Shown: positions 4,505 to 29,099, counted from the stretch's first letter. The stretch: 32,000 nucleotides of DNA from an uncultured Eubacteriales bacterium (GCA_934647945.1 CAKUFK010000019.1:1-32000), one strand, 5' to 3'. Notes: generated by a model from the sequence alone, not told the origin. Made by a program: numbers and translations.

Positions 4505-5434
4505 CTATTTCTGTTCCGGACTCCGCCGCAGCGGGAGCCGCTGCCGGCTGAGGAGGACCTTCCGGATAATGAGGGCCGCCCCGGAGAGGACGAGGGCCAC
4601 GGCGGTGACGGTGATAACCAGCGTCCAGTTGCATCCGGTGATACCGGTGATGTCAAACACGCCGGTGTCCGGATTCTGCAGATGGGAGAAGATGTGGGCG
4701 GTGTCGAACACCAGGCCCGCCAGGAAGAGGACGGTGGCTGCCGCGAACAGAATCACTGCGGACAGGGGCTGACGCTCCTGCTTGGGAGCACGGCCCACCA
4801 TCTCCCGGCGGAAATCCAGCACCCCGCCGATCATGAAGGCTCCCAGGACGGTGATAATGGTTTCAGGGAGCATGTAGGTGGCATTATAGATCAGCGAGAA
4901 GGGCACGGCGCCGGCCATGGGGATGGAGATGTCCCGCCAGACCGTGATACCGGAGAGAAAATGGCAGGCATAGCGCAGCAGACAGACGAGAACGGTGCCC
5001 GCAGCCAGTTCGGCCCGCTGGCTTTTGATCTGGCCGCGGAACACCCCCGCGAGGCCCAACACCGTAAAGGCGATGACATAATCGAGGAAAAAGACCAGCA
5101 GGAAGGAGCCGGGGGTTTTGGTAAAGGCGCTCAGGGTACCGATGCCCCCCTCCACGATCTGGAGCAGGCTGAACACGAAGCCGGTGAGCAGGCCCCATTT
5201 CCAACCGTAGCGGTAGGCGATGATGACGACGGGCAGCATGCTGCAAGCGGTGATGGTGCCGCCATACGGCAGGCTGGCCAGGGGGAACAGGCAGAGCACG
5301 AAGGCGAAGGCGAGCATGACGGCGCTTTCCGTCAGCTTGAGGGCGGGGGATCCCGCGCCCCAGTGGGTGTTGCGGATGGATTTTTCCACGGGTGTTTCTC
5401 TCTTTTCCTCTGGATTTTCGCGCTCACGTCCCAA
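4505..5434 (-). CDS. thiT: Energy-coupled (ECF S-component) thiamine transporter ThiT with a C-terminal two-TM extension
   Basis: LKLTESAVMLAFAFVLCLF..GGTITACSMLPVVIIAYRYGWKWGLLTGFVFSLLQ resembles ThiT, and the gene sits directly behind a TPP riboswitch. The start is uncertain: TTG at 5434 or GTG at 5389. The last ~100 aa add two predicted TM helices. Confidence 0.8.
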   Translation of the reverse strand: MGRERENPEEKRETPVEKSIRNTHWGAGSPALKLTESAVMLAFAFVLCLFPLASLPYGGTITACSMLPVVIIAYRYGWKWGLLTGFVFSLLQIVEGGIGTLSAFTKTPGSFLLVFFLDYVIAFTVLGLAGVFRGQIKSQRAELAAGTVLVCLLRYACHFLSGITVWRDISIPMAGAVPFSLIYNATYMLPETIITVLGAFMIGGVLDFRREMVGRAPKQERQPLSAVILFAAATVLFLAGLVFDTAHIFSHLQNPDTGVFDITGITGCNWTLVITVTAVALVLSGAALIIRKVLLSRQRLPLRRSPEQK

Positions 5435-5475: not shown

Positions 5476-5524
5476 GCCGACAAACGTCGTCCGCCGCAAA
5501 AAGTGCGGCAGCCGGGTCTCGTAT

Positions 5525-5618
5525 GAAAACATCCCTCCGCCGGTATTATCCGGATCAGGTTTCAGGGTTTGAAGCCGCGGGCTTCCTCTCAGCCGGCCTT
5601 GCGCCAGCACCCCTTGTT
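5525..5618 (-). promoter_or_regulatory. TPP (THI-box) riboswitch aptamer
   Basis: The minus strand reads GGGGUGCUGGCGCAAGGCCGGCUGAGAGGAAGCCCGCGGCUUCAAACCCUGAAACCUGAUCCGGAUAAUACCGGCGGAGGGAUG. This contains the conserved CUGAGA, ACCCUGAACCUGAUC.GGAUAAU.CC.GCG.AGGGA core of RF00059. Confidence 0.9.
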
Positions 5619-5645
5619 TGTGTTGTGAGGTTTGCGAATGAAAAT

Positions 5646-5675: not shown

Positions 5676-6434
5676 TCACGAGGGCCGGACGGTGACAACG
5701 AAACCGTCCGCGTTGTTTCCCGAAATTTCGGCGCAGCCCTGTTCGGGAAGAGGGATCACCGTCTCTTCCTCCCCGGCCGGCACCACGTAGATCCGGGTGC
5801 CGTCGGGCAGGCGGCGGGGTGAACCGGCGGAATAGGCGCCGAGGGCGGCGGTGTATTCCTCCAGCGTCAGGCCGTCCCGGGCGATCAAGGAGGCGTGAGG
5901 CGTGCCGACATAGCGGAAATGCCAGGGTTCCTGAGCCACGCCGGTGATCCCTTCCTTTCCCGCCTGATACCGTTCGATGAATCCGTAGGCGGGCGCCAGC
6001 TCCCGAAAGCGCTGACACAGACCGGCATAGGGAAACGCGGGGCGGATGAAATCGATCTCTTTTGCCGCCTTTCCCACATCGATGGCTAGCCCAGTCTGAT
6101 GTTCACTGGTGCCGGGATAGGCGATGTACTGCTTGGTAAAAACCTCTCCATTATCTTTCAGGGAGGTCGTATACAGCTCCTCCTGTTCCCGTCCGCTGCG
6201 GTAGCCGCTGACCGGGACAATCCCCTTCCCCGCCGCGCAGGCGGCGAGCAGGGCGCCGAGCGCCCGCGCGGCCGCGCGGTCCAACAGGATATCCGGAAAG
6301 CCCGGCACCGCTTCGCAGAGCCGCTCCCGCAGGGTCTCTTCCGGGAGCCGGAGGGGATGGGTGCGGTTGACCAGGATCAGAGGCCCGTCCCCGGCCGCCT
6401 GACGGGGCAGGCGGAGGACCCGACCGGCGCTCAT
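5676..6434 (-). CDS. vanXY: M15-family D-Ala-D-Ala dipeptidase/carboxypeptidase, VanXY-like (cytoplasmic)
   Basis: Carries the zinc D,D-peptidase signature motifs SGYRSGREQEELY, SEHQTGLAIDV and EPWHFRYVG. No N-terminal TM segment. The ATGA start overlaps the ligase stop. Confidence 0.8.
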   Translation of the reverse strand: MSAGRVLRLPRQAAGDGPLILVNRTHPLRLPEETLRERLCEAVPGFPDILLDRAAARALGALLAACAAGKGIVPVSGYRSGREQEELYTTSLKDNGEVFTKQYIAYPGTSEHQTGLAIDVGKAAKEIDFIRPAFPYAGLCQRFRELAPAYGFIERYQAGKEGITGVAQEPWHFRYVGTPHASLIARDGLTLEEYTAALGAYSAGSPRRLPDGTRIYVVPAGEEETVIPLPEQGCAEISGNNADGFVVTVRPS

Positions 6435-7489
6435 GCCGGTTCCTCCGCCAGGGTAATCAGCCGCTCGGCAATGGCGGAGAAAGGCATTCCCGCCGCCTCC
6501 AGCATTTTGGGATACCGGCTGTGGGCCGTGAACCCTGGAATGGTGTTGATTTCATTGAATACCACGTCCCCGGCGGGGGTCAGGAACATGTCCACCCGGG
6601 CGAAGCCGCGGCAGCCCAACGCCTGATAGAGCACCGCCGCCGTGCCACGGATCTTGTCGCGGCTTTCGGGGGAAATGCGGGCGGGCAGACGGATTTCGGC
6701 GGTGCGGTTGCCGTATTTTTCCTCGTAATCCAGCCAGCGTTCCCCCAGCGCCACTTCATCCACCTCGCCGATGAACAGTTCCCGGTTGCCTATGACCGCG
6801 CAGCCGACCTCGAAGCCGGGGATCTCCTCCTCCACCACCGCCTTGGAGTCGAAGGCAAAGGCCAGCTCCACCGCCGCGGTGAGCTCGTCGGCCCGTTCCA
6901 CCCGGGTGATGCCATAGGAGGAGCCCGCGTTGGCGGGCTTGACAAACAGGGGATAGAGAAGCCCGGCGGCCCGTTCCAGGGGGGATCCCTCCTCCCCTTT
7001 ATAAAGCGTGACCGAGCGGGGGACCCGTACCCCGGCCGCCGCCGCCAGGGTATGGGCGACCTCCTTGTCCATGCAGGCGGCGGAGCCCAATACGCCGCAG
7101 CCCACATAGGGGATGCCGGCCAGCTCGCACAGCCCCTGGACGGTACCGTCTTCGCCATTGGCGCCGTGGAGCATGGGAAACACCACGTCCACCCGCACCG
7201 GACGGACGCCGGCCTCATCCCACTCCAGCAGGCCGTGAACCGACCGGTCGGGAGACAGAGAGGCCCGGATAAGGGGCCTCTCTGTCCAGTGCCCCGCTTC
7301 GATATCGTCGGCGGAACAGGCACAGCGGAACCACTCGCCGCGGCGGGTGATCCCGACCGGGATCACGTCGTACCGCGCGGGATCCAACCCACGCAGCACA
7401 GCCGCGGCGGAGCAGAGGGAGACTTCGTATTCGGGCGAGCACCCTCCAAAGAGGAGGGCGACGGTTTTCTTCTGATCTGCGGTTGTCAT
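6431..7489 (-). CDS. vanG: Van-type D-alanine--D-serine (VanG-like) ligase, ATP-grasp
   Basis: Internal ATG at 7489 (MTTADQKKTVALLFGGCSPEYEVS...). VGCGVLGSAACMDK, FEVGCAVIGN, LDYEEKY and NEINTIPGFTAHSRYPKM align by eye along the whole length with the VanG sequence as I remember it. It is flanked by vanW and vanXY-type genes. The substrate (D-Ser, D-Ala or D-Lac) cannot be fixed without an alignment. Confidence 0.85.
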   Translation of the reverse strand: MTTADQKKTVALLFGGCSPEYEVSLCSAAAVLRGLDPARYDVIPVGITRRGEWFRCACSADDIEAGHWTERPLIRASLSPDRSVHGLLEWDEAGVRPVRVDVVFPMLHGANGEDGTVQGLCELAGIPYVGCGVLGSAACMDKEVAHTLAAAAGVRVPRSVTLYKGEEGSPLERAAGLLYPLFVKPANAGSSYGITRVERADELTAAVELAFAFDSKAVVEEEIPGFEVGCAVIGNRELFIGEVDEVALGERWLDYEEKYGNRTAEIRLPARISPESRDKIRGTAAVLYQALGCRGFARVDMFLTPAGDVVFNEINTIPGFTAHSRYPKMLEAAGMPFSAIAERLITLAEEPA

Positions 7490-7490
7490 G

Positions 7491-14895: not shown

Positions 14896-15954
14896 TTACC
14901 GGGTGGCCGGCAGACCCGCCGCCCCGGCCGTGTACCCGGCCCCGGCCAGCAGATCCCGCGCGTTCCGGTACAGGATATCCTCGATATCGCCGTCCGACAG
15001 CTTGAGGTCGAAGGCGCACCGCTTGAGCGCGCGCAACTCCTCGTAAATCATCAGGGTGATGTCGGTCTCGTCGGTCTGACGCATATGCGGATCGCCCGAC
15101 ACGTCGCCGTACAGGCCCCTGGGCACCACGTTGCGGTACACCCCGCCTTCCACCACCCGGTACATCCGCATGATGGCGATCGGCAAATCGGAACCGAACA
15201 GCAGCCGCTTCGTCCCTACCGCCCGGATACAGGCCTTGATCGCGTCGTCGCAGACGTTGGCCGTAAAATCGAAAAGCATATGCCGGGTATTCCGCAGCAC
15301 CTCGAATGCGTCTCCGATATCCTCCTTGGAATAGGCCCGGCCGATATGGGCGACGACCAGCCGGATATTCGGGTATTTCTGCTCGATCTCCATGAGCTGC
15401 GCAATGTTGAGCGCATCCCGCAGCCGCGCCGCCCGGGGGATATGCAGCATGACGATCCAGCCGTTCCTGTCTGCGGCTTCCAGATGCTCATGGGGCAGGA
15501 AATCGAAAATGCGGATCTCCTTTTCCGGAATATAGGGCGGGCAGTTGCTCAGGTAGGGTTTGAGCCCCAGAAAGCCGCCTTGCCGGACTTCCGATTCGAG
15601 AAAATCGGGCGGCATGTCGTATGTCGTGCGGAACAGGGTGGGAAAGCCATAGGCCTGCGCGGATTCCCGGACATAGGCGTTGCACTGCCCCACGTCGTGG
15701 GAAACGCCGCCGAAAACCAAGGGCGTGACGGCCTGGCCGGGAAAGAGGGCCCGGAAGCCGCCGGTCAGATCCTCCGCCGTCTGTTCGTCCGCGACCAGGT
15801 CGATCCAGGTGGATCCGCCGTTGGGCTCTCCCTGCGGCCGGAAGGTGTTTTTCCAGATATGGGTGTGGATATCGATCAGATTGTCCGGCAGAAACCCCCG
15901 CAGTTCCGTCTCGTACACGCGGCGGTCATAGTCGGTCAGATTCAGCTGAAACAT
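14896..15954 (-). CDS. Amidohydrolase_2 (metal-dependent TIM-barrel hydrolase/lactonase-type) family protein
   Basis: DIHTHIW near the N-terminus and LLFGSDLP near the C-terminus are the PF04909-type hallmarks. AAGGGGG RBS. Confidence 0.85.
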   Translation of the reverse strand: MFQLNLTDYDRRVYETELRGFLPDNLIDIHTHIWKNTFRPQGEPNGGSTWIDLVADEQTAEDLTGGFRALFPGQAVTPLVFGGVSHDVGQCNAYVRESAQAYGFPTLFRTTYDMPPDFLESEVRQGGFLGLKPYLSNCPPYIPEKEIRIFDFLPHEHLEAADRNGWIVMLHIPRAARLRDALNIAQLMEIEQKYPNIRLVVAHIGRAYSKEDIGDAFEVLRNTRHMLFDFTANVCDDAIKACIRAVGTKRLLFGSDLPIAIMRMYRVVEGGVYRNVVPRGLYGDVSGDPHMRQTDETDITLMIYEELRALKRCAFDLKLSDGDIEDILYRNARDLLAGAGYTAGAAGLPATR

Positions 15955-23697: not shown

Positions 23698-24516
23698 ATG
23701 GACAACAATATCTGTAAATTCGTGCCGACGCGGAGCAGCGGCGATCAGATCAACACCGTCAATTTCGTGTATGAAACCATCATCCCGCAGCGCAACCAGT
23801 TCATCACCAAATCCACCTACATGATCTATCTGGTCACCGAGGGCCGGGGTACGCTCTGCCATACCCAGAAAAGCGTGGAAATCCGGAAGGGGGATCTGTT
23901 CTTCACCTTCCCGTCCACCCCCTTTGCCATCGAGGTGAGCGACAGCAATCTCAAGTATATTTACATCTCGTTTTTGGGGATCCGGGCGGGACGCATTTTG
24001 GAGGAAATGAAGATCGGGTCGGGAAACTGCGTGTTCCGTCACTACGATTTCCTGGAGGAATTCTGGACAGGGGCCTTGGATATCGCCACCCAGTACAACC
24101 TGGATATGCTGTCCGAATCGGTGCTGCTCTACACCCTGTCCGTACTGTCGGGCAACACCCTCAAGGAAGAAAAGCTCTCCCGCAATGCAGATAATATCCT
24201 CCAGATCAAGAAATATATCGACGACCACTACACCCTTCCCGACCTATCCCTGGAAACCATCTGCGCCCAGTATCAATACAACCGCAAATACCTGTCGGGC
24301 GCCCTTAAAAAGGTGCTGCACGTGGGCTTTTCCGAATACCTGCGCACCCTGCGCATCCAGCACGCCTGTATGCTCATCAACGAGGGGCTCTCCAACATCA
24401 AGGACATCGCGACCTTGTCCGGCTATCGCGATCCCCTGTATTTTTCGAAGGTGTTCAAAAACGCGATGATGCTCTCCCCCAAGGAATACATTTCCTCCGT
24501 CCGGGCCGGGCGGTGA
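23698..24516 (+). CDS. AraC-family transcriptional regulator
   Basis: The C-terminal region (IKKYIDDHYTLPDLSLETICAQYQYNRKYLSGALKK..FSEYLRTLRIQHACMLI..IKDIATLSGYRDPLYFSKVFK) is the AraC double HTH, and the N-terminus is cupin-like. AAAGGAG RBS. The gene is divergent from the sugar locus. Confidence 0.9.
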   Translation: MDNNICKFVPTRSSGDQINTVNFVYETIIPQRNQFITKSTYMIYLVTEGRGTLCHTQKSVEIRKGDLFFTFPSTPFAIEVSDSNLKYIYISFLGIRAGRILEEMKIGSGNCVFRHYDFLEEFWTGALDIATQYNLDMLSESVLLYTLSVLSGNTLKEEKLSRNADNILQIKKYIDDHYTLPDLSLETICAQYQYNRKYLSGALKKVLHVGFSEYLRTLRIQHACMLINEGLSNIKDIATLSGYRDPLYFSKVFKNAMMLSPKEYISSVRAGR

Positions 24517-24532
24517 CAGGGGCGGGGGCGGA

Positions 24533-24778
24533 TCAAGCGTCTTCTCTCTGCCGCTCTTTTTCCTGCAGCAGGTTTTCGATATGGGTGCAGACGAAATCCA
24601 GGGGGCTGAAATTCGCCTTCACAAGGTACGTCTCCTCGATCCGGATATCGAACCGGTTTTCCAGCTCGATAACAAACTCGACAAAAGCCAGGGAATCCAG
24701 CTCCGCCTCAAAATGTTCCGGATCCCCGACCCCCTGCTTTTCCAGAATTTCTATAACCGAGCGTTTCACGGATTCCAT
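24533..24778 (-). CDS. Orphan acyl/D-alanyl carrier protein-like protein (81 aa)
   Basis: Internal ATG at 24778 after GAGGAGG. ELDSLAFVEFVIELENRFDIRI contains the DSL phosphopantetheine-attachment motif and resembles the LDSFGTVELLLAIENRFDI region of DltC. Confidence 0.7.
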   Translation of the reverse strand: MESVKRSVIEILEKQGVGDPEHFEAELDSLAFVEFVIELENRFDIRIEETYLVKANFSPLDFVCTHIENLLQEKERQREDA

Positions 24779-24880
24779 GGCACGCGTTACCTCCTCGTCC
24801 GAATGGGCGGATCCTGCTCCGCCCGCGTTGACCAATGGTCTTTGTGGTTTCAGCTTTTTATGGTATGGGTTTGTGGCCAG

Positions 24881-25557
24881 CCCCATCCTCTGGGGCCGCG
24901 GCCTCTTTCTGTATAAAGGCCGGTTCGGGTGTCGGCCTACCCGCCGGCTTTCCTGAAAAGAAAACCGGCGGGAATGTTGACTCTTGAACCAACGCTATAC
25001 AAGGAGGGGGCCTGGGGCCCCCGGGGTAGGGTGGGTGCGAGACTGAAAAAATACAGCAACCCCATCCCCTGGGGCCGCAACCCCTTTCTGTATAGAGGCC
25101 GGTTCGGGTGTCGGCGTCCGAGTCGATTTTCATAGAGAGAACCTCGGGCCGGCCCCTGAAAGACACTCTAAACCGGCGGGCATTGGGGCCGGTCACCCGC
25201 CATTGTGGTGTCCCACAATGGCCCTAAAAATCAAAACCATCCGGGGCTCCAAGGAAACTCCCCTTGGCACGTCTTTGCCTACTTTCTTCGTGTGAAGAAA
25301 GTAGGTGGCCCTCAGGCCAGACCTGAAAAAGACGAGCATTGTGGTTTGTCCGCGCATAAAAACGCAGTCCTTCTAAAAAGGAGATCGGTTGCGCGGCCAC
25401 GTCCTTTCTCCGCGTGGAGAAAGGACGCAAAGAGACGCTTAGGGGGTGCCCCCCTAAGCACCCCGGATGGTCGGCCGGTTTTCTTTTCAGGAAAACCGGC
25501 GGGGATGTTGACTCTTGAACCAACGCTATACAAGGAGGGGGCCCGGGGCCCCCGGGG
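24881..25557. repeat. Non-coding mosaic array A of palindromic repeat modules
   Basis: Internal direct repeats: 24881-24936 vs 25060-25115 (about 5 mismatches in 56), and 24944-25026 vs 25475-25557 (the 58-nt core differs at 2 positions). It contains at least 8 separate hairpin units, e.g. CCATTGTGG-TGT-CCCACAATGG, CCTACTTTCTTC-GTGT-GAAGAAAGTAGG and GTCCTTTCTCC-GCG-TGGAGAAAGGAC. Confidence 0.85.
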
Positions 25558-25585
25558 AGTCTAGAGGGCACAATTTTATATGCCT

Positions 25586-26230
25586 TTAAAATCTCTGTAC
25601 GGAGGATTGTTTCCCTTGTTTTCCACCGAGACACAATCTACCCTGTAATACAATACGGCCCGCATCCTTGCTTCGGGCTAAAAATTCCCGCACCGCCTGT
25701 TTTTTCCGGGAGCGGTAGGGCCGCAGGCTGGCTGATACCCCTACGGCGTCGATGCCCGCGTTTTCTGCGAGATAAAGGGCACGGTAGAGGTGATACTCCT
25801 GGGTGACGATCACGAGGGTGCCGGTACCGAAAACCGTCCGGGCCCTCCGGACGGAAGCAGCGGTGGATACCCCCCGGCGATCCAAGAGGAGGGCCTCTTC
25901 CGGAACGCCCGCCCGCAGAACGGCGCGGCGCATGGCCGCCGGCTCGTCGTATCCCGGCCGGCCGTCGCCGCTGAGCAGCAGCTTCCGGCCGGCACCGCGG
26001 CGATAAAGCGCGATTGCCACCTCCACGCGGTCGGCCAGCATATCGGACATCCGGCCGTCCGGTTCCACACCGGCGCCCAATACCAGGATCGCGTCGGCGG
26101 ACCGGCCATCCAGATCGGAGAGCCTTCGAACAGCAGGGGCCGTCCGGGCAACCACGCAGGCGTTGAGTGCCGCGGCACCCCCTCCCAGGGCGGCGCCGGC
26201 GGCAAAAAGCGCTTTGGTTAGGAATTTCAT
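25586..26230 (-). CDS. SanA/YdcF (DUF218) family membrane-anchored protein
   Basis: N-terminal TM (MKFLTKALFAAGAALGGGAAAL), then ADAILVLGAGV..DRV..A..LY..G...LLLSGDG, YDEPAAM and LVIVTQEYHLYRALY match the SanA pattern. GGAAAGGGG RBS. Confidence 0.8.
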   Translation of the reverse strand: MKFLTKALFAAGAALGGGAAALNACVVARTAPAVRRLSDLDGRSADAILVLGAGVEPDGRMSDMLADRVEVAIALYRRGAGRKLLLSGDGRPGYDEPAAMRRAVLRAGVPEEALLLDRRGVSTAASVRRARTVFGTGTLVIVTQEYHLYRALYLAENAGIDAVGVSASLRPYRSRKKQAVREFLARSKDAGRIVLQGRLCLGGKQGKQSSVQRF

Positions 26231-28324: not shown

Positions 28325-29047
28325 AATCCCCGGGGCCCTTGGGTCCTCAAGGATGGGGCAGGCCACAAACCATGATTTTATAGCCTCCAAGCCCTCGGGG
28401 CGGCAGCCCCTTTATGTATGGCGTTGATTCAAAAGATTCCGTACCCGCCGACTTTCCTAAAAAGAACTCCGGCCTCGCCCCTGAAGGGCTCTCTATACTG
28501 GCGGGCACTGGGGCCGGTCACCGGCCATTGTGGTGTCCCACAATGGTCCTAAAAATCAAAATACCTGGGGGTGCCAAGGGGGCTCCCCCTTGGCGCCTCT
28601 TTCCCCGTTCCTACTCGATTAGCCTAGGGCAAATGCGGAAGCATTTGCGAGGGCCGGGGCAGGCCACGTATGATTTCGACGGCGTTCGACCCGGCCTTCT
28701 TGTCGACAAGAAAGAGGGTGCCGAAGCACAGATCGTGCTTTATGGCATGAGCGCGTTTAAAATATAGTCGCATCGTGTAAGCGGGCAGATCGCCATACCC
28801 GTCTTTTTCAGGTTTGGCCTGAGGGCCACCTTCTTTCTTCGCACGAAGAAAGAAGGCAAAGACGTGCCAAGGGGTTACCCCTTGGAGCCCCGGGTGACTA
28901 GCCGGTTTTCTCTTAACGAAAACCGGCAATAGCCTCACCACCCGATCCCACTATATACAGGAAGGGGCTGCGGCCCCAGGGCTTGGGGTTGCTGTCTTTT
29001 TTCGGCCCCGCGCCCAATCGAGCCCCGGGGGCCTCGGGCCCCGGGAG
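28325..29047. repeat. Non-coding mosaic array B of palindromic repeat modules, sharing modules with array A
   Basis: 28481-28561 is a direct copy of 25156-25236 (8 mismatches in 81 by hand alignment). 28801-28893 is an inverted copy of 25241-25333. 28897-29047 is an inverted, diverged copy of the 25005-25115 unit plus its continuation in unit copy a (24937-24970). There are additional unique hairpins, e.g. GCCAAGGGGG-CT-CCCCCTTGGC, GCAAATGC-GGAA-GCATTTGC and TTCTTGTCGACAAGAA. Confidence 0.85.
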
Positions 29048-29099
29048 TTTGGGTGGTCATCATTTTATGCATACGTTCCCAACCGGTCCGGGATGCCCG

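Follow-up and report, generated by a model that had tools for sequence, protein, structure and literature searches.

Introduction

The ERIC (IRU) sequences of Enterobacteria and Vibrio are imperfect palindromes of ~127 bp that form a simple stem and may insert at TA. The Correia (NEMIS) elements of Neisseria and the RUP elements of the pneumococcus are 100-155 bp long, carry repeats of 16-26 bp, and have a proven TA duplication. BOX elements of Streptococcus pneumoniae are assembled from modules A, B, and C of 45-60 bp, with a whole that measures <350 bp. REPINs and BIMEs, together with the RAYT, have been defined in previous work (PMC3116915, PMC3337134, PMC6006769), in which a REP is a 20-40-nt unit with a conserved 5' GT[AG]G foot (PMC6006769).

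Here we analyze an extragenic array, array A, within a 32,000-nucleotide stretch of DNA that we refer to as the window. A preliminary description of this DNA had classed array A as a REP/BIME-like mosaic. That description saw the pattern correctly and got the subtype wrong: the array is indeed an extragenic mosaic of palindromic modules, but the canonical features of a REP are mostly absent. Array A probably represents a new non-autonomous, MITE/REPIN-like foldback family that has been remodelled by recombination, and it carries two tandem copies of the element.

Results

Array A lies in a gap flanked by an ACP-like gene and a SanA/DUF218 gene (Table 1); the ACP-like gene is also called as 81 aa in L001-L010. 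The host appears to be a Clostridia-like lineage, high in GC, spore-forming, and resident in the human gut; one DUF218 homologue, at 56% identity, bears the label Acutalibacteraceae, and sporulation genes lie nearby. Array A is a real, non-chance feature. Folding, the stems themselves, and a check of the reading frames all confirmed that the gap is non-coding and built of reiterated hairpins. For the 166-nt unit at 24870-25035, folding gave z=-5.3 on the - strand and z=-6.1 on the + strand, and a 531-nt unit folded at -263 kcal/mol (z=-9.3), with 0 shuffles equally stable.

The direct repeats noted in the preliminary description were recovered. Module 1 at 24881-24936 recurs at 25060-25115 (56 nt, 91%, E=6e-15), and module 2 at 24943-25026 recurs at 25474-25557 (84 nt, 90%); the first copy of module 2 had been written as "24944-26", a typing error for 24944-25026. 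Within module 2, the core at 24960-25026 matches 25491-25557 over 67 nt with two mismatches (97%, E=1e-28). The core string quoted earlier does differ at 2 positions between copies, but it is 66 nt long, not 58. The additional stem-loops of 9-12 bp were also present, with perfect 12-bp stems at 25278-25305 and 25400-25427 and, from direct reading of the sequence, stems of 9-10 bp at 25199-25222, 25437-25459, and 25474-25500. The repeats given for 24881-25557 are therefore real, but a profile search widens the stretch to 24865-25581.

What did not hold is the view of modules 1 and 2 as independent types, since the folds and the arm profile show that they are inverted-repeat partners. On either strand, 24870-25035 folds into a single long hairpin, with the two modules paired to each other and a central hairpin between them. 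A terminal-arm profile, built from five arms out of different contexts, matched array A in two pairs of opposite orientation, 24865-24952 (+) with 25034-24960 (-) and 25047-25131 (+) with 25581-25491 (-). In a second array of the window, array B, it matched 28372-28456 (+) with 28993-28918 (-) as well as a solo arm at 29068-29029. A profile of the full element found two complete copies in the window, both on the - strand: element 2 at 25052-25579 (profile positions 2-524, 540 bits) and element 3 at 28378-28995 (positions 9-525, 400 bits). For element 1 (24879-25036), only profile positions ~12-106 and 429-518 aligned, that is, both ends. Given these arm-pair and full-element matches, array A consists of two adjacent foldback copies in the same orientation (head-to-tail), one full and the other a short internal-deletion derivative. 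The motif to which their linker belongs also separates tandem copies elsewhere (L009, L012, L027, and within L023:40-140). In a consensus scan, the hairpin close to the ACP-like gene has 9 pairs, 6 of them G-C, and is oriented along the direction of the flanking genes; it looks like a terminator.

Table 1. Coordinates of arrays A and B, their parts, and the genes beside array A (positions in the window)
Feature	Position	Strand	Size	Remarks
ACP-like gene	24533-24778	-	81 aa	Downstream flank of array A; Pfam PP-binding, 21.9 bits
Array A gap			807 bp	Between ACP-like start 24778 and DUF218 stop 25586
Element 1, short internally deleted copy	24865-25036		172 bp	Arms 24865-24952 and 24960-25034
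Element 1, central hairpin	24940-24972			
Element 1, terminal GC hairpins	24892-24905; 25006-25022			
Linker between elements 1 and 2	25037-25046			Belongs to motif GAGACTGAAAAAATACAGC
Element 2, full-length copy	25047-25581	-	535 bp	Arms 25047-25131 and 25491-25581
Element 2, internal hairpins	25199-25222; ~25248-25269; 25278-25305; 25306-25319; 25350-25396; 25400-25427; 25437-25459; 25474-25500; 25537-25553			
Terminator-like hairpin followed by TGTATTTTTT	25056-25078	-		ACP-proximal end of element 2
SanA/DUF218 gene	25586-26230	-		Upstream flank of array A; Pfam DUF218, E=1.5e-25
Arm remnant, degenerate	28330-28371			HTH-gene side of array B
Element 3, full copy	28372-28995	-	624 bp	Core of array B; includes an extra ~90-bp optional module
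Solo terminal arm (AT-rich tip and GC hairpin)	29029-29068	-		HisKA-gene side of array B; arm-profile positions 4-45 only

Array B (28330-29068) lies between a HisKA gene and an HTH-DUF6514 gene, and arrays A and B bracket a block of three genes (HTH-DUF6514, alpha/beta hydrolase, and DUF218). We rejected the possibility that this block is invertible: the longest perfect inverted match is 21 nt, and all 10 loci have the block in one orientation. Element 3 shares segments of 75-85 nt with array A at 91-95% identity, in both orientations. The arm remnant, which is common to all locus B alleles, is 95% complementary to 24868-24889 over 28350-28371, and 29023-29042 is 95% complementary to 25538-25557.

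Relatives of the locus were found by looking up the exact DUF218 protein, which led to this locus in ten metagenome samples of the human gut; other copies of the element came from a degenerate arm pattern run on metagenome contigs and from a search with a spurious ORF (see below). Together these place the family in at least 10 intergenic contexts, including those adjacent to mfd and to a flavoprotein gene, between purN and the IMP-cyclohydrolase gene (purH), between ftsW and murG, downstream of ftsZ, upstream of spoIIR, downstream of yqfD, and at alpha-amylase/MerR. The preliminary description would have counted it as refuted if the modules occurred nowhere else in the genome, as a local duplication only. 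Because copies are dispersed in array B and on metagenome contigs, in at least 10 other intergenic contexts, this is not the case. Tandems of 2-3 copies are the rule, arranged head-to-tail with a linker of 10-25 bp, and copies lie both sense (about 3) and antisense (about 4) to the genes beside them.

The spoIIR locus is from the same species as the window, as L005, which encodes the identical DUF218 protein, matches L026 at 98% identity along 6.5 kb. The copies next to mfd and the flavoprotein gene are 96-98% identical to those of the window; these two loci are probably in the same species too, judged by that similarity between copies and not by any genes linked to them. Several contigs switch locus inside an array (L005, L012, L013/L017/L032, and L014/L015). 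At L005:10679, compared with L026, locus A passes into the spoIIR-upstream array within a repeat copy, and at L012:9300-10336, compared with L017, it passes into the mfd-adjacent array, again within a copy. All these switches may reflect real rearrangement, such as recombination between dispersed copies in L005 and L012, or chimeric metagenome assembly, and part of the apparent variation may therefore be artefact. L005 also differs from L026 by a 2.27-kb insertion (L005:15204-17474) downstream of the sigma-F operon, with genes for an IS110-family transposase and an aminoglycoside N-acetyltransferase-like protein (Antibiotic_NAT).

We aligned 16 oriented copies from at least 10 intergenic contexts (alignment A1), and they match from end to end. 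The family unit is ~525 bp, with inverted arms of ~70-90 nt and ~10 nested hairpins between them. A single order of modules is kept across all 16 copies, and indels remove or add whole hairpins or 1-2 nt. Each arm is composed of an AT-rich tip TATAAAATTRTGGCCACC, a GC hairpin of the form GGGGGCC-NNN-GGCCCCC, and the motif TCCTTGTATAGCGTTGGTTCAAGAG. Inward of TCCTTGTATAGCGTTGGTTCAAGAG come a 10-bp hairpin, GCCGGTTTTC...GAAAACCGGC, and a further chain of hairpins with optional whole-hairpin modules. The far end of the element mirrors its first three parts, and the two halves have a rough two-fold symmetry. Some copies hold an optional module of ~90 bp beside one of the two symmetric 12-bp hairpins (A1 columns 213-298 and 491-577), for example at ~28600-28700 in the window and at L016:4975-5065. 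This module includes a piece resembling two joined element tips, AAATCATACGTGGCCTGCCCC, which hints at nested insertion of one family member into another.

The pairing within the element is conserved. Paired cells in A1 amounted to 82.9%, compared to 39-55% when partners were slid by 1-3 columns, a measure that favours the tested structure over the slid controls because that structure is the fold of the window copy, one of the 16 aligned. Pairs changed on both sides numbered 53 versus 19-31 in the slid controls, and cells changed on both sides 137 versus 27-53; these compensatory changes cover both local stems and long-range helices. When the count was limited to pairs that are Watson-Crick in the reference and the near-identical relatives of the reference were excluded, G.U pairs (123) and A.C mismatches (103) did not differ significantly (p=0.2), and neither strand is preferred. 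A palindrome at the level of DNA therefore fits better than a strand-specific RNA, which we rejected for want of supporting evidence once the bias of the reference fold had been removed.

Array A encodes no conserved protein: family members have no open frame in common, and copy L026a reaches at most 72 codons without a stop, whichever frame is read. This lack of a conserved frame led us to reject a small protein or type I toxin. Gene callers nevertheless place "hypothetical proteins" of 50-220 aa in the arrays (for example L001:10597-11118 and L004:7166-7681), and given that they have neither Pfam domains nor a conserved frame, these are false genes in public protein sets. A search with one such spurious ORF returned 51 "protein" clusters (P0001-P0051) that have no Pfam domains and come mostly from contigs of <2 kb, suggesting that assemblies break at the multi-copy repeat.

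The Rfam/Infernal scan proposed in the preliminary description gave no family match at gathering score in array A. With Rfam 15, matches in the array were weak and far under the gathering scores (E>=0.08), six other family loci gave no hits, and the only hit in the window was a TPP riboswitch at 5515-5624 (-), which scored 74.6 bits against a gathering score of 54.3 and is immediately upstream of the gene for a thiamine transporter of the ThiT/YuaJ type (4505-5434, -). No tRNA or tmRNA was found in the arrays. A scan for sigma-70-like promoters over 24400-25800 returned 0 sites; by eye, module 2 contains TTGACT...TATACA with a spacer of just 13 nt. A sigma-54-like sequence, TGGCACGTCTTTGC at 25265, was rejected by eye, given a GG-to-GC spacing that is one base short and a lack of conservation in array B. 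The element had no match in IMG/VR or in phage and plasmid collections, and so nothing suggests that it came from a phage or a plasmid. In a genome collection from which the source species is absent or in which it is masked, arm patterns, whether exact or degenerate, hit only by chance (Bartonella, Liquorilactobacillus), and the literature on MITEs or REPs in these bacteria yielded nothing specific. By these searches the element is new to Rfam, IMG/VR, the phage and plasmid collections, and the literature covered, all of which matched nothing.

Two other repeat systems were considered for array A and rejected. A CRISPR array would have one short repeat of constant length in alternation with unique spacers of similar size, but the repeats here are of several kinds, 56-149 nt long, irregularly spaced (179 and 531 bp), and in both orientations; the preliminary description had likewise judged the array not to be a CRISPR array, and this variation in length and spacing bears it out. 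For an integron attC array, neither cassettes nor an integrase was found in the window or in the locus A contigs.

Some other parts of the window are worth recording. At 5676-8357 (-), adjacent VanW, D-Ala-D-Ala ligase, and VanY-domain genes make up a van-like cell-wall remodelling cluster, which adjoins an Na+/H+ antiporter family gene. The G+C content falls to 0.47-0.55 at 1-1000 and 13000-15000, compared to about 0.62; one of these stretches has a Cro/C1-type HTH gene and the other a Pfam-less ORF (13046-14029) and a GrpB gene, and both may be foreign DNA.

Locus A occurs in three length classes. The alleles of 272-274 bp (L002 and L003) contain one short unit and nothing else, and this unit is closely like element 1; those of 805-806 bp are found in the window and L009; and those of 1071-1072 bp, found in six samples, contain two full copies. 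Each class was seen in at least two independent samples, beside an identical DUF218 protein, which supports copying that is recent or still under way, in agreement with the earlier suggestion of recent copying. Locus B has identical flanks around different family members, with L002 unlike the window throughout and L001 unlike it only in its left half. The length alleles are well accounted for by slippage or recombination between modules, as in a 61-bp deletion between CGGACAA repeats in L005 and in loss of the body between the two inner hairpins, from which the short unit results.

In a sister species whose DUF218 protein is 86% identical, we found no copy of the element in 14.6 kb around the same three-gene cluster, and more distant relatives had none either. 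The ACP-like orthologue of the sister species is 88% identical and occupies a different position: in L033:3700-8600 it is upstream of the HTH gene, in divergent orientation, whereas in the window it is downstream of DUF218. Homology between the DUF218 proteins stops at residue 192 of 214. Because the ACP-like gene differs in position and DUF218 homology stops, arrays A and B lie at the two junctions of a lineage-specific rearrangement.

TA was found just outside both tips at locus A and in L016, the best-bounded copy. In L015, L032, and array B it adjoins single tips, and TG was present instead at L030 and at an internal junction. A target-site duplication of TA is possible from these sequences, in which the tip boundaries are drawn partly from the same motif, so that target and own tip are separable only with an empty site. 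We found no clean pair of filled and empty sites within one species. The predicted empty sites would read AAAGGCA-TA-CCATAAAAAGC at locus A and AAAAACG-TA-GGAGGACATG at purN/IMP cyclohydrolase. The preliminary description had also suggested looking for a RAYT gene elsewhere; neither a Y1/RAYT gene nor a transposase with matching ends turned up in the 32-kb window or in the gene calls for the related loci.

Discussion

We place the family with MITE/REPIN-like elements because of its inverted arms, non-coding sequence, dispersal at gene boundaries, mixed orientation, tandem arrangement, turnover between strains, and absence from the corresponding region of the sister species. The members are small (172-624 bp) and non-coding, have terminal inverted repeats, and occur as dispersed copies with differences between related genomes, all of which are MITE features. 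The preliminary description had preferred a REP/BIME mosaic to a MITE with terminal inverted repeats, but each unit is bounded by inverted arms of 70-90 nt, with two units in tandem.

For such a family, a trans-acting enzyme would recognise the terminal arm and insert copies exactly where genes end or begin, in AT-rich targets that are probably TA. New copies would often land beside an existing one, giving rise to tandem arrays, and recombination between modules together with slippage would generate the short derivative and the length alleles of the strains. Read-through from flanking transcription would then form very stable hairpins, of which the one at 25056-25078 would be terminator-like. 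Mobility itself, the TA target, and an effect on transcription are what we infer; what the data show directly is the anatomy, dispersal, and polymorphism of the copies, the compensatory base-pair changes, and the absence of coding potential and of strand bias. The copies might also have spread by recombination in place of transposition.

How far the elements might instead be true REPs, as the preliminary description supposed, depends on features that can be compared directly. If they were, the terminal GC hairpins would be REPs, the unit would be a doublet with a long spacer, and a single-copy RAYT (Y1 HUH) elsewhere would copy the single-stranded hairpins without target duplication. Copies of the family are extragenic and clustered, compensatory changes keep the hairpins, there is no strand bias, and no target duplication is clear. 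The paired terminal arms also form a hairpin from two inverted units, as a REP doublet does. RAYTs of group 1 have been reported in Clostridia (PMC5581495), and a central deletion between inverted REPs gives shorter forms (PMC6006769), much as element 1 relates to element 2. However, the units measure 170-620 bp, not 20-40 nt, and the arms are long, true inverted repeats that reach well past the hairpin. Direct reading of A1 found no conserved GT[AG]G foot 5' of the terminal or central hairpins; a GTAG occurs only next to the hairpin at the centre of element 1 (as its complement CTAC, 24937-24940), where its polarity is wrong, and L002 and L003 have GCAG in its place. Neighbouring copies are head-to-tail, where the Y/Z REPs of a BIME would alternate, and neither the window nor the genes of related loci include a Y1_Tnp domain. 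Taken together, a REP/BIME (REPIN) system seems unlikely. A broader proposal is that the ~525-nt units are a new, large class of selfish element defined by structure, in which the whole nested fold is copied or selected, through a single-strand mechanism (HUH-type or other) that recognises hairpins or through an RNA role on both strands in essential operons such as ftsW-murG and purN-purH, and which also drives rewiring of gene order between strains of gut Clostridia. We consider this proposal distinctly improbable.

The extremely stable predicted folds raise the question of whether each ~525-nt unit encodes a large, structured non-coding RNA or acts in cis as a regulatory RNA (terminator, insulator, or stabiliser), under selection for its fold and repeated because the RNA is useful at many operons. 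Covariation includes long-range helices, and the compensatory changes would fit RNA function on both strands; copies inside operons, at ftsW-murG and purN-purH, are necessarily transcribed, and one end of element 2 is terminator-like. On the other side, orientation is mixed, G.U and A.C are about equal with no preferred strand, and there is neither a sigma-70-like promoter in 24400-25800 nor an Rfam family. The number and identity of copies also vary between strains at one site, and the sister species has no copies around the same three-gene cluster. An RNA of this kind is thus very unlikely to be what is repeated. A purely local product, in which the arrays are duplication or rearrangement scars of the lineage-specific relocation of the ACP-like gene and there is no dispersed family, would account for the position of arrays A and B exactly at the two junctions at which the sister species has another gene order, and for the confinement of the family to these two arrays within the 32-kb window. 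It is scarcely credible, given members in unrelated housekeeping contexts on other contigs, the spoIIR-upstream context that L005/L026 tie to the same species, and the 96-98% identical copies by mfd and the flavoprotein gene.

If the reading as a MITE/REPIN-like foldback family holds, a common human-gut Clostridia lineage has unusually large structured non-coding repeats with no match in the libraries and papers searched. They lie at gene boundaries, some of them inside essential operons, vary between strains, and coincide with changes of gene order. Such repeats would serve as useful strain markers and would be candidate modulators of operon expression. They also probably account for metagenome assemblies that are broken or chimeric and for spurious "hypothetical proteins", as in the 51 clusters that come from one reading frame. 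The mobilising enzyme, if found, would tell a MITE mode from a REPIN mode in a poorly studied group.

The family resembles REPINs and BIMEs in that its two inverted terminal modules, each a hairpin, combine into a larger one, in its extragenic and clustered copies with compensatory changes in the stems, and in having no clear target duplication and short forms that arise by central deletion. It differs in a unit that is 5-20 times larger, in long arms, tandem arrangement, and the lack of a GT[AG]G foot, and in that no RAYT was seen in the window or related loci. Like ERIC/IRU, the copies are non-coding, imperfect palindromes in intergenic and often transcribed DNA, in either orientation, that can form one long hairpin, with possible insertion at TA and with size variants produced by internal indels at fixed points. 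Unlike ERIC/IRU, they are ~525 bp long with ~10 nested sub-hairpins, usually form head-to-tail tandems, occur in Clostridia, and show no similarity in sequence, with no Rfam, phage, or plasmid match. With the Correia and RUP elements they share terminal inverted repeats, non-coding sequence, dispersal at gene boundaries, TA by both tips, and possible effects of the hairpins on transcripts, although the arms here are 70-90 nt, the body is a conserved chain of hairpins, and the TA duplication is only possible. BOX elements are similarly modular, with terminal modules that pair and a number of internal modules that varies between copies, but long inverted arms that end in an AT-rich tip are missing from them, and their sequence is unrelated. 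By analogy, then, the closest counterparts of the family appear to be ERIC, Correia/RUP, and BOX; it exceeds them several-fold in size and has a much more elaborate fold.
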